The notes below the pieces were generated by a model, which saw only the letters and a program-made list of their open reading frames with translations, was not told where the DNA came from and did not search any database. From Angelakisella sp. (GTDB lineage: Bacteria > Bacillota > Clostridia > Oscillospirales > Ruminococcaceae), in the NCBI GenBank assembly GCA_022794295.1, contig JAAWEO010000001.1, positions 6,969 to 70,968 on the forward strand: a stretch of 64,000 nucleotides of DNA. The letters run 5' to 3'. Made by a program: the position numbers and the translations under genes. Of this stretch, positions 21,849 through 33,277 are shown in pieces. Every line of letters starts with the position of its first letter. The first letter of the stretch is position 1.

Positions 21849-21916
21849 AGGGAAGTATGTTTTTTGCGGCCATAACCATTTGGATATTTTATAATTTTTA
21901 GACGAACAGTATTTTC

Positions 21917-21975
21917 AAAAGAAAACCAAGGGCAAAGAACAGAAGGGATCTGTTCTTTGCCCTTGGTTTTCTTTT
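21917..21975. terminator. Perfect 27-bp inverted repeat, bidirectional terminator
   Basis: AAAAGAAAACCAAGGGCAAAGAACAGA-aggga-TCTGTTCTTTGCCCTTGGTTTTCTTTT. Confidence 0.8.
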
Positions 21976-22005
21976 TGCTGCTTGCGGATAGGGGAATTAT
22001 GATAG

Positions 22006-22665
<660 letters not shown>

Positions 22666-22674
22666 ACACAAAAA

Positions 22675-22851
22675 GAACACTATCAAAAGGTATACTTTTT
22701 GGTAGTGTTCAGCTTATGACGATGTTTTGTGCAATTCTGCTTCCAGAACTGCTTTCACTATTGCTTATTCGGTCAATCTACTGAAAACTAAAGGGGTTCT
22801 GCAAAATTTTTTCTTACTATCAAAAGGTATACTTTTTGATAGTAAGAAAAA
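22675..22851. repeat. Pair of 28-bp palindromic recombination-like sites flanking a putative invertible segment
   Basis: ACTATCAAAAGGTATACTTTTTGGTAGT (22679-22706) and ACTATCAAAAGGTATACTTTTTGATAGT (22816-22843), both with a central AT. Confidence 0.85.
22766..22792 (-). promoter_or_regulatory. sigma28 (FliA/SigD)-like promoter inside the putative invertible segment
   Basis: Minus strand TTTAGTTT-N11-ACCGAATA versus consensus TAAAGTTT-N11-GCCGATAA. Confidence 0.45.
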
Positions 22852-22870
22852 GCGCACGGAGGCAGGAAAA

Positions 22871-23152
22871 ATGCTGGTTTTAACACGGAGGCTTGGGGAA
22901 TTTCTGGTCCTGAATGACAACATCTTTATCAGCGTCTTTGAAGGGGGCAACGGCGACCAAGTGAAAATCGCCATCGAGGCCCCGGAGGATGTGAAGATCG
23001 CCCGGAGCGAGATGTTCGCGGACTGCGAGGAGGTCCAGCGGAAGCTGGAGGCCATCCGGTCCAAGAAGGTGGGCAGGCGGACCAAAAAGACCCGGAAGGA
23101 AATGGAGCGGCTGGGCACTGTCAAAAGTCCCTCCCAGGAAGCTCCCCGGTGA
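22871..23152 (+). CDS. csrA: Carbon storage regulator CsrA
   Basis: MLVLTRRLGE...QVKIAIEAPEDVKIARSE plus a basic C-terminal tail. Confidence 0.88.
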   Translation: MLVLTRRLGEFLVLNDNIFISVFEGGNGDQVKIAIEAPEDVKIARSEMFADCEEVQRKLEAIRSKKVGRRTKKTRKEMERLGTVKSPSQEAPR

Positions 23153-23312
23153 CCCTGCGGCGGGAGCCGCACGTAACATCGTTTTCAGCTCCGCCCGGCG
23201 CAGTGCGCGCGGCGTTGGGCGGGGATGAAAAAATATTATTTTGAACAACCGTTATCCCAAAGGTTCAGATAAGGACGCTGAAACTGGATACCGGTTGGAT
23301 GGAGGTATTACA

Positions 23313-25424
23313 ATGGGAATGGTCGTAAGAACCAACACAATGGCGCTCAACGCGTACCGTCAGCTGGGCATGAACAACGCTGCTGTCACAAAGTCTCTGG
23401 AGAAGCTGTCCTCCGGTTTCCGGATCAACCGGGCCGGTGACGATGCCGCCGGTCTGGCCATCAGCGAGAAGATGAAGGCCCAGATCACCGGCCTGGAGAC
23501 CGCCTCCGCCAACGCCCAGGATGGCATCTCCCTCATCCAGACCGCCGAAGGCAACCTCACCGAGGTTCACTCCATGCTGAACCGTATGGTTGAGCTGGCC
23601 ACCAAGTCCGCCAACGGCACCTACACCAGCACCGAGCGTGACGCCCTCCAGGACGAGGTCGATGCCCTGCTGGATGAAATCAACCGTATTTCCAAGTCTG
23701 CCAACTTCAACGGCACCCGCCTGCTGGATGGCTCCATGGGCCTGAATAAGGATGCCTTTGAGATTGGCGCCACAACGGATGCCGCCTCCGGCGCGAAGAT
23801 CACCATTGCCGGTCTGGCTGCCAGCGGTGCCACCACAGCACACACGAATGTCGCCGGGGTACCCTCTCAGGGCGCTGCTTTCAGCATCGACCTGGCTGAC
23901 TTTGTGGGTGACCTCACCAAGGAGACCGTGGCCAATGTCGCCTTCGCTGTCACCATTGCTGGTCAGAAGTTTTCCACCGGCGCCATTGACTGCACTGCTG
24001 CAGCGAACAAGAAAAAGTATACTGGTGCTGACCTGGTCGATAAGATCCTTGCAAACACCGCCAACTTCTATACAACCGCAGCAAGCGCTCCCGGCGGCAC
24101 CGGCAGCACTGACAAATTCGTTGTGCTTGATGGCGCCTTCTATAAGGTAGGCAAGGATGGCTCGAAGCTCACCTTTACCTATGCCGGCGCGGAAGCAAAC
24201 TATGATAAGGCCACAGCAACAGATACTGTCACCACCACAATGGAGGGCATCAACGCCAAGCTTGGCCACAATGTGGAGGTAGCAATCGAAAACGGGAGCA
24301 CCAACGGTGCCGCTTCTACTGGCGCTTCGTATCATGGTGTTGTGGACATCACCAAGGCGCAAGCGAAGGTTGAGGGCAAGCGCGCCGGTATCCAGCTGAA
24401 TCTCGCCCAGATGGCGGATCTGTTCCAGGATGGCGCGCAGCTCAAGATTGATGACACCGTCTTCACCTTCAAGCTCAATGCCAACAGCACCTTCACCGGC
24501 AATGTCATCGACCTGAGCAAGGTAAAGGGTGCCGGCGCTACTCCTACCGCTGCCGAGTATGCCGCCGAGGCTGCCAAGCAGATGTCCAATATGTCCACCG
24601 GCCACTTTGAGATCTCCGCTGCCGGTACTGCTGGTTCCGGCGTAATCAGTGTGGACCAGACCGTTGCGGATTACAATGATGGCGCAAACGCCCCCTATGA
24701 CACCTACCAGAAGCTGGTGGATCTGTTCTCCGCCAACCAGGCCGGGACCGGCGCTTCTATCAATTTGAAGATGGATGTTTCCAAGCTGAATGCCGGTGAC
24801 GCCATTAAGATTGGCAGCAAGACCTACACCTTCGTGAAGGAAAACAGCAACCCCGCCCCCACCGATCCCAATCAGGTGGAGGTTCTGCTGGGCACCAACA
24901 ATGGCGACGCCATCACCAACCTCATCGCCAAGCTGGCGGAGGATGGTCTCACCGCCACCAATAACGCCGGTACCCTGACCATCACCGCCGCGGCCGGAGT
25001 CACAACTCCTCCCACCATCATGGGCGCGGGTCTGACCCTCCAGATCGGCGACACCGCGGATTCCTTCAACAAGATGACGGTTGCTGTCAATGACATGAGC
25101 GCCAAGGGCCTGGGCCTGGATGGTCTGGACATCACCAGCGAGACCAAGGCCAGCGACGCCATCGACAAGATCAAGACCGCCATCAACACCGTTTCCACCG
25201 CCCGTGCCAGCATGGGTGCCCTCCAGAACCGTCTGGAGCACACCATCAACAACCTGGATGTTGCGGTTGAGAACCTGAGTGCTGCTAACAGCCGTATCCG
25301 GGACACCGATATGGCCAAGGAAATGATGAACTACACCAAGATGAATGTCCTGGTGCAGTCCGCCCAGGCCATGCTGGCCCAGGCCAACCAGCAGCCCCAG
25401 AGCGTCCTCCAGCTCCTCCAGTAA
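23313..25424 (+). CDS. fliC: Flagellin, 703 aa, with a large variable domain
   Basis: EKLSSGFRINRAGDDAAGLAISEKM N-terminus; MGALQNRLEH...SRIRDTDMAKEM...AMLAQANQ C-terminus; GGAGGT RBS. Confidence 0.97.
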   Translation: MGMVVRTNTMALNAYRQLGMNNAAVTKSLEKLSSGFRINRAGDDAAGLAISEKMKAQITGLETASANAQDGISLIQTAEGNLTEVHSMLNRMVELATKSANGTYTSTERDALQDEVDALLDEINRISKSANFNGTRLLDGSMGLNKDAFEIGATTDAASGAKITIAGLAASGATTAHTNVAGVPSQGAAFSIDLADFVGDLTKETVANVAFAVTIAGQKFSTGAIDCTAAANKKKYTGADLVDKILANTANFYTTAASAPGGTGSTDKFVVLDGAFYKVGKDGSKLTFTYAGAEANYDKATATDTVTTTMEGINAKLGHNVEVAIENGSTNGAASTGASYHGVVDITKAQAKVEGKRAGIQLNLAQMADLFQDGAQLKIDDTVFTFKLNANSTFTGNVIDLSKVKGAGATPTAAEYAAEAAKQMSNMSTGHFEISAAGTAGSGVISVDQTVADYNDGANAPYDTYQKLVDLFSANQAGTGASINLKMDVSKLNAGDAIKIGSKTYTFVKENSNPAPTDPNQVEVLLGTNNGDAITNLIAKLAEDGLTATNNAGTLTITAAAGVTTPPTIMGAGLTLQIGDTADSFNKMTVAVNDMSAKGLGLDGLDITSETKASDAIDKIKTAINTVSTARASMGALQNRLEHTINNLDVAVENLSAANSRIRDTDMAKEMMNYTKMNVLVQSAQAMLAQANQQPQSVLQLLQ

Positions 25425-32611: not shown

Positions 32612-33277
<666 letters not shown>

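Follow-up and report, generated by a model that had tools for sequence, protein, structure and literature searches.

What is the role of a 137-bp segment that lies between a small serine recombinase gene and a csrA-flagellin gene pair and is flanked by two nearly identical palindromes? We addressed this question in a 64,000-nt stretch of DNA from Angelakisella sp. (GCA_022794295.1, contig JAAWEO010000001.1, positions 6,969-70,968 of the forward strand), referred to here as the window, and all coordinates are window positions unless a contig is named. The host genome (G000; 2.39 Mb, 307 contigs, 85% complete) looks metagenome-assembled. Our results make it very probable that positions 22693-22829 are an invertible promoter cassette (inverton) placed before csrA1 and flagellin 1 (switch 1), and that this cassette was assembled in its OFF orientation.

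The segment is enclosed by paired palindromic sites, neither of which has a strand. The left recombination site (22675-22710) is an imperfect 36-bp palindrome, GAAC...GTTC, with a 28-bp core at 22679-22706 that begins 13 bp past the stop codon of the recombinase gene (22060-22665), and its crossover point would fall between A22692 and T22693. The right site (22808-22851) is a 44-bp palindrome, TTTTTCTT...AAGAAAAA, whose 22-nt arms are 95% complementary, with a 28-bp core at 22816-22843 and a crossover point between 22829 and 22830. Both centres fall inside GTATAC, the two cores differ at one base, and they are 137 bp apart from centre to centre, or approximately 13 helical turns. When the 28-mer was searched for with up to three mismatches, just these two places were found in the 64 kb, with 0.00 expected from 100 shuffles. 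The original prediction, made from the sequence of the window, had described two near-identical 28-bp palindromes at this spacing and at this distance from the recombinase stop, and the coordinates and the shuffles agree with it. With up to two mismatches, the 28-mer occurred in none of four same-genus genomes scanned; the sites vary, so this is not evidence of absence. The assembled layout reads A|A' at the left site and B'|B at the right; inversion of 22693-22829 yields two direct A|B hybrids. The arithmetic of this in silico flip, as originally described, is correct, and both states were found in nature (see below). The symmetric AT core leaves the orientation of the sites undefined in this window.

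Inside the segment, a sigma-28 (FliA/SigD)-like promoter, TTTAGTTT-N11-ACCGAATA, is located on the minus strand at 22766-22792 and, as assembled (OFF), points to the recombinase gene. This was the sole match to the motif in the window (0.00 expected), and a relaxed form of the motif had just three matches in the whole 2.39-Mb genome, namely switch 1, a second switch (switch 2) and C165:631-657. The third match lies 54 nt before a flgM-like gene (region C165:631-1025), a late flagellar gene with flgN- and flgK-like genes after it. The promoter of switch 2 is TTTGGTTT-N11-ACCGAATA and that of the orthologous cassette in genome G061 is TTTAGTTT-N11-ACCGAATA; both boxes, at the spacing of sigma-28 promoters, are kept in switch 1, switch 2 and G061, and the spacers between them are unrelated. 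The gene for FliA is present in G000 (227 bits against a cut-off of 189.6). Most other cassettes of the family to which this locus belongs hold strong sigma-A promoters, for example TTGAAA-17-TATAAT. Because the motif is confined to the two switches and the flgM promoter, FliA is present and most other cassettes are of the sigma-A type, we read the cassette motif as the predicted sigma-28 promoter of this organism, carried on invertible DNA, and the earlier claim of a sigma-28-like promoter is thereby strengthened. A sigma-A promoter in the window cassette was also considered and was rejected, the sigma-70 scan being weak (8 and 7 of 13).

Evidence on the orientation of switch 1 came from public sequencing runs. 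The stretch was found in mouse-gut metagenomes and metatranscriptomes of 10 studies, and the Logan contigs (k=31) of four of these public runs were compared with positions 21900-23700. In a metatranscriptome (X16, study P9), a 155-nt contig with a depth of 3.7 matched 22827-22936 with 0 mismatches and joined 22936..22827 to 22696..22740 on the opposite strand, its six ambiguous letters being GTATAC. This junction is exactly the one predicted for inversion between both centres. The two orientations share GTATAC alone, diverging at the fourth base from the centre and again from the fourteenth, and therefore the 31-letter words of the OFF state cannot build the X16 junction. In a DNA run from a different study (X14), contigs ended at 22695, ran from 22690 to 22832 (143 nt) and started at 22827, break points that coincide exactly with the predicted points of divergence between the two orientations. 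A contig of a further run (X12) crossed the cassette in the reference orientation. The depth in X16 was zero over 22754-22814 and over 22510-22692, where the recombinase gene has its 3' end, and it was positive over 22693-22753 and from 22815 into csrA, a pattern suggesting a transcript start near 22757 in the flipped state.

The second switch was found in both orientations. A third site, identified genome-wide, lies on the G000 contig C106, which begins exactly at a GTATAC half-site and carries, at C106:1-154, a homologous inner segment before a second csrA gene (csrA2) and a second flagellin gene. A degenerate pattern derived from both inner segments retrieved four metagenome contigs, three of which (L111-L113) provided the full context: an aminotransferase-like gene, an NhaC-like transporter gene, switch 2 (around 3234-3371 of L111, reverse strand), csrA2 and the gene for the 833-amino-acid flagellin 2, with no recombinase or mobile-element gene beside the switch. 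The 137-bp inner segment of C106 matched those of L111-L113 at 133-134 of 137 positions as the reverse complement, compared with 54-55 of 137 in the same orientation, and the flank was 99% identical. The promoter of switch 2 thus faces csrA2 (ON) in G000, where switch 1 is OFF, and faces away from it (OFF) in L111-L113; the layout of the sites is hybrid in C106 and palindromic in L111-L113. The left half of switch 2 was on no other contig end of G000 and was seen in metagenome contigs alone. CsrA1 and CsrA2 are 89% identical, and the two flagellins are 92% identical over their first 142 amino acids and 84% identical over their last 137, with centres that do not align.

We also assessed the wider family of such loci in a scan that used one genome per species. 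At least 565 relatives of the recombinase were found in gut Clostridia, with names that include Oscillospiraceae, Lachnospiraceae and Acutalibacteraceae, and 84 loci were examined (L025-L104, the window locus L009, and L020, L021 and L023). Paired sites 114-223 bp apart, beginning approximately 20-30 nt past the recombinase stop, were present in 49 of the 84. Most pairs combine a left GTGTAC with a right GTACAC and are true inverted repeats with an asymmetric GT/AC crossover; for serine recombinases, an asymmetric centre in inverted orientation dictates inversion, and most family sites should therefore lead to inversion. The AT centre of the window is a minority variant within this family. A pair of loci displayed the two orientations directly: L073 (Faecalicatena faecalis AGMB00832, an isolate) and L100 agree at 300 of 300 flanking positions on either side, the 145-bp inner segment of one is the exact reverse complement of the other's, and in L100 a TTGAAA-17-TATAAT promoter faces the downstream gene. 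Comparing orientation across sequencing runs and homologous loci, as had been suggested for checking the original reading of an invertible promoter assembled OFF, supported that reading and turned up both orientations in public data, at this locus (X16 and X14), at switch 2 (G000 versus L111-L113) and in L073/L100.

The family also clarified the geometry of the switch. The distances between paired sites fell into classes of 114, 125-127, 135-139, 145-148, 156-158, 166-169, 176-177, 188-190 and 223 bp, with none between, and had a resultant length of 0.76 at a period of 10.5 bp, a value to which not all loci contribute independently; steps of approximately 10.5 bp suggest a looped synapse in which the two sites have to lie on the same face of the helix. 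The palindromic layout was clearly favoured (margin of at least 5) in 25 loci and the hybrid layout in 2. State and promoter direction were compared where both were clearly callable, several loci with four similar half-sites being unscorable, and in every such case the promoter pointed toward the recombinase in the palindromic layout (the window, L021, L027, L052, L073, L074 and L111, all OFF) and toward the cargo in the hybrid layout (L100 and C106, both ON). The original prediction took the A-A'/B'-B arrangement for the relic of an inversion between two A-B copies; because the palindromic form is general across the family, we instead regard it as the usual resting state and not as the scar of a single past event.

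On this basis, we propose the following mechanism. Dimers of the adjoining 201-amino-acid serine recombinase would bind the two 28-bp two-fold sites and would synapse over the 137-bp loop of 13 helical turns, probably aided by a DNA-bending protein; Ser9 would then cleave both sites at the central AT, and subunit rotation followed by religation would invert the segment. In the assembled state, the promoter would fire toward the recombinase gene, csrA would be OFF, and transcripts would reach the left palindrome and a U tract approximately 65 nt on. This putative terminator-like element (22660-22710, minus strand) consists of the left palindrome as an RNA hairpin, followed by UUUUUGUGUU, with a predicted energy of -20.6 kcal/mol (ViennaRNA). 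The right palindrome of the OFF state was predicted at -23.1 kcal/mol, and the right hybrid site of the ON state at -9.8 kcal/mol, without a U tract. Many family loci have an A run ahead of the left site, and a possible rationale for the resting state is that this run and the left palindrome would together terminate transcripts from the parked promoter. In the flipped state, the promoter would face csrA1, and transcripts would cross the weaker hybrid site into csrA1 and continue toward flagellin 1.

Switch 2 is of the same kind and has no adjoining recombinase gene, and therefore one recombinase probably flips both switches in trans. The flagella would then probably undergo phase and antigenic variation under control of the flagellar sigma factor, and because the module is fitted with a sigma-28 promoter, the switch would be nested within the flagellar assembly checkpoint. 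A more elaborate scheme, which we put forward tentatively and think rather doubtful as a whole, is an alternation of two antigenically different flagellins, in which two sigma-28 invertons would be served by one Sin-like recombinase in trans, CsrA made at whichever locus is ON would, in the manner of FljA, keep the other flagellin's mRNA silent, the layout of the half-sites would bias the switches toward OFF, and hairpin insulators would exist in the OFF state alone. Such a system would be a convergent, modular re-invention of Hin-type variation in Clostridia.

Several points weigh against an invertible promoter that drives csrA1 and flagellin 1. The flipped state of this exact locus was seen in one low-depth contig and in contig break points, and because the RNA library may contain DNA, X16 shows the flipped form and suggests transcription from the flipped promoter. 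The symmetric AT centre is without a built-in orientation, unlike the centres of most family members, and the promoter boxes match the published sigma-28 consensus, in its E. coli form, only in part, at 6 of 8 and 5 of 8 positions. C106, a 3.7-kb contig in a 307-contig, 85% complete bin, may come from a close strain. We infer the link between the recombinase encoded at 22060-22665 and the sites, and a paralogue with 61% identity is encoded in the window as well. Finally, the conserved spacer between csrA and flagellin could hold an independent flagellin promoter, and the switch might then govern CsrA more than flagellin.

This last point is best judged from the genes themselves. The first gene past the switch is csrA1 (22871-23152, plus strand; 93 amino acids; PF02599 CsrA, 4.8e-17), which is followed by the gene for the 703-amino-acid flagellin 1 (23313-25424, plus strand; Flagellin_N 5.8e-43, Flagellin_C 1.2e-28) and by a GT2 glycosyltransferase gene. 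The spacer between csrA1 and flagellin 1 (23153-23312, plus strand) contains two hairpins, one GC-rich and one with a GGA loop (23264-23282), together with an A/T-rich stretch, in which there is a weak CCG(A/T)T box, and a Shine-Dalgarno sequence, GGAGG (23301-23305); its mean column identity among locus 1, locus 2 and G061 is 83%. The GGA-loop hairpin and the GGAGG resemble the CsrA sites of the Bacillus subtilis hag leader, by analogy with which a putative function can be assigned to them. The inverton could accordingly be real and yet have CsrA as its main output, if flagellin had its own promoter in the spacer and the ON state meant more CsrA and less translation of flagellin from this or the other locus. 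The position of csrA directly behind the switch speaks for this possibility, as do the conservation of the spacer, with its hairpin and box, and the GGA motifs in the hairpin loop and the Shine-Dalgarno sequence. FliW, the antagonist of CsrA in Bacillus, was not found, which would also fit, but in an 85% complete genome this permits no conclusion. However, the spacer box is without the TTTAGTTT element that is common to the switches and flgM, and a contig of an RNA run (X15) is unbroken from the csrA interior into flagellin (23006-23353). In addition, three genera have csrA followed by flagellin behind the switch, as would be expected of one transcription unit; the full order recombinase-switch-csrA-flagellin recurs in G061 and in Agathobaculum ammoniilyticum Sanger_34 (L085), whose 114-bp cassette carries a ACCGATAT box. 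The depth of the RNA runs is unfit to rank csrA against flagellin, as the conserved flagellin ends attract reads of other organisms. We consider a switch with CsrA as its main output unlikely and favour one that acts on csrA and flagellin together.

The nature of the recombinase bears on a different alternative. The presumed invertase (22060-22665, plus strand; 201 amino acids) is a small serine recombinase of PF00239 (1.5e-28; 100 bits against a cut-off of 23.3), its YGYIRVSS aligning with IGYARVSS of Sin, and R7, S9, D66, R67 and R70 are invariant in an alignment of six homologues. Its best match among solved structures is Sin/Tn552 Bin3 (2r0q, 1e-30, residues 1-157), followed by the gamma-delta (8e-20) and Tn3 resolvases; it falls outside the Hin/Gin type (Gin chains at 4.5e-14 and 8.4e-14) and outside the Mpi family (model NF009949, 47.4 bits against a cut-off of 272). 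The alignment to the gamma-delta and Tn3 resolvases reaches residues 189-191 and spans their helix-turn-helix (HTH), and no Pfam HTH model passed 0.001. Judged by these matches, the recombinase is closest to Sin and beta-type resolvases and not to Hin/Gin or Mpi. The original prediction, which had named hix and res site I as examples of the two-fold sites of small serine recombinases, needs amending in that the enzyme is nearer Sin and gamma-delta than Hin/Gin. Orthologues with 64-71% identity directly precede a like cassette in G061 (71%), G078 and G287. The paralogue (32612-33217, minus strand; 201 amino acids) lies at the edge of a low-GC insert; sites like those of switch 1 were looked for beside it, and none were found.

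A kinship with Sin (1e-30) and gamma-delta (8e-20) could mean that the enzyme is the resolvase of a mobile element, that the palindromes serve as res-type crossover sites, at which cointegrates or multimers are resolved or DNA is excised, and that their position before csrA is incidental. The genes 5' of the recombinase gene, which encode an HTH_3 protein, an ImmA/M78 peptidase and a Y-family polymerase, look like mobile-element cargo, and the symmetric AT core would permit deletion besides inversion. Excision through this core, which was also part of the original prediction, is possible in principle, but no joint from deletion of the 137-bp segment was seen in the four runs, with the proviso that contigs cannot show absence. 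A search for an accessory site II of the Sin/beta kind returned only four half-sites, those of the two full sites (up to three mismatches), and no extra ones in or beside the segment. Moreover, across dozens of unrelated contexts, the sites of this family stand at a fixed helical phase around a promoter and adjoin the regulated gene, neither a recombinase gene nor mobile-element genes flank switch 2, and most family sites are inverted with an asymmetric centre, which leads to inversion and not to resolution. A mobile-element resolvase is thus very improbable. Slightly less probable still is a static regulatory region that never flips, its palindromes being operators or hairpin terminators and the recombinase, for example, merely binding DNA: both sites are long palindromes with strong hairpins, the palindromic layout predominates in assemblies (25 clear cases versus 2) and X12 crosses the cassette in the reference orientation only, but such a region is at odds with the flipped junction in X16, the X14 breaks at the predicted points, the two orientations of switch 2 and L073/L100 between matching flanks, and resting-state promoters that aim at nothing useful.

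The invertible promoter that we favour resembles several known systems. As in the Salmonella Hin/hix system of fljBA (and in Gin, Cin and Pin), a small serine recombinase would flip a promoter by a 2-bp crossover at short two-fold sites, the cargo genes encode a flagellin and a post-transcriptional regulator of flagellin mRNA (FljA there, CsrA here), and there is a second flagellin locus. Unlike hin, which lies inside a segment of approximately 1 kb with a Fis-bound enhancer, the recombinase gene here lies outside a 137-bp segment, and the enzyme is nearer Sin and gamma-delta than Gin by the structure matches given above. The sigma-28-type promoter, the presence of a switch at both flagellin loci and the Gram-positive gut anaerobe host are further differences. 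On/off switching of flagellins in this commensal is thus probably similar to that in Salmonella. With Sin (Staphylococcus aureus pI9789/Tn552) and beta (pSM19035), small serine resolvases that can also invert, the enzyme shares the catalytic residues and a palindromic crossover site of approximately 28-30 bp with a central dinucleotide. Sin and beta need the DNA-bending protein Hbsu/HU, and the short, helically phased spacing here suggests a like need. They differ in that no accessory site II was found here and in that the sites bracket a promoter as a gene switch and do not serve plasmid or transposon resolution.

The Mpi polysaccharide invertons of Bacteroides fragilis are alike in that a serine recombinase apparently acts in trans on several promoter cassettes of approximately 140-200 bp. 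Here, too, the cassettes are short, the enzyme gene lies outside the segment and there are several targets, with two cassettes in G000 and six to seven sites (several cassettes) beside BspA-type leucine-rich repeat (LRR) genes in the genus g78; the score below the family cut-off, the phylum, the site sequence and the promoter types differ. To our knowledge, little is known about the regulation of flagellins by commensals. A 154-bp invertible element of Clostridioides difficile, Cdi4, gives flagellar phase variation in a Clostridial species; it acts in the flgB leader via Rho-dependent termination, and its published description is not one of a flipping promoter (PMC7446863). It differs from the present switch in that its recombinase, RecV, is of the tyrosine type and in that it controls the early flagellar operon instead of a flagellin gene. 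In colitis and Crohn's disease, flagellins from gut Clostridia are major targets of TLR5 and of antibodies (PMC10441350, PMC11285207). The locus described here would place flagellins of a mouse-gut commensal behind reversible DNA switches, and as the two flagellins differ in their exposed central domain, it offers a concrete mechanism by which a commensal flagellum could vary, both on/off and antigenically.

The library searched yielded no paper on this family of recombinase-linked switches, and large inverton surveys may list some members. New in the present window are the csrA-flagellin cargo, the sigma-28 promoter, two loci in opposite states and the orientation evidence from sequencing runs. 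Members of the family occur in cultured isolates (the csrA-flagellin version in Sanger_34, another in AGMB00832), which makes experiments feasible. The cargo downstream of the family switches includes AMP-binding enzymes, CsrA, BspA-type LRR proteins, pilins, TadZ, kinases, and HEPN or helicase proteins, and the family can be viewed as a portable module of recombinase and promoter placed before many surface-protein genes. In g78, a different genus in the same bacterial family, G078 has seven sites and G211 has six, with one recombinase orthologue each. The cassettes of this genus (L005, L006, L010, L013-L017 and L021) contain an extended -10 promoter, TTGCGT-N17-TGGTATGAT, and are mostly located before paralogous genes for BspA-type LRR surface proteins, and their promoters point away (OFF); the exceptions are L013 and L016, at which no LRR gene was found.

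Further minor observations were made on these family loci. In G078, one cassette begins 8 nt past the recombinase stop, and at L022 (G211:C17) the recombinase stop is followed by a site-like start, GCACTGTCAATAGG, which then diverges, with no cassette; L022 may be what was left by a deletion or by a long-range rearrangement between cassettes. Several public contigs (L040, L043, L049, L056 and G211:C24, the last being L011) end at or just past the first site or inside the cassette, as expected if assemblers break at switches that are present in two orientations or in many copies.

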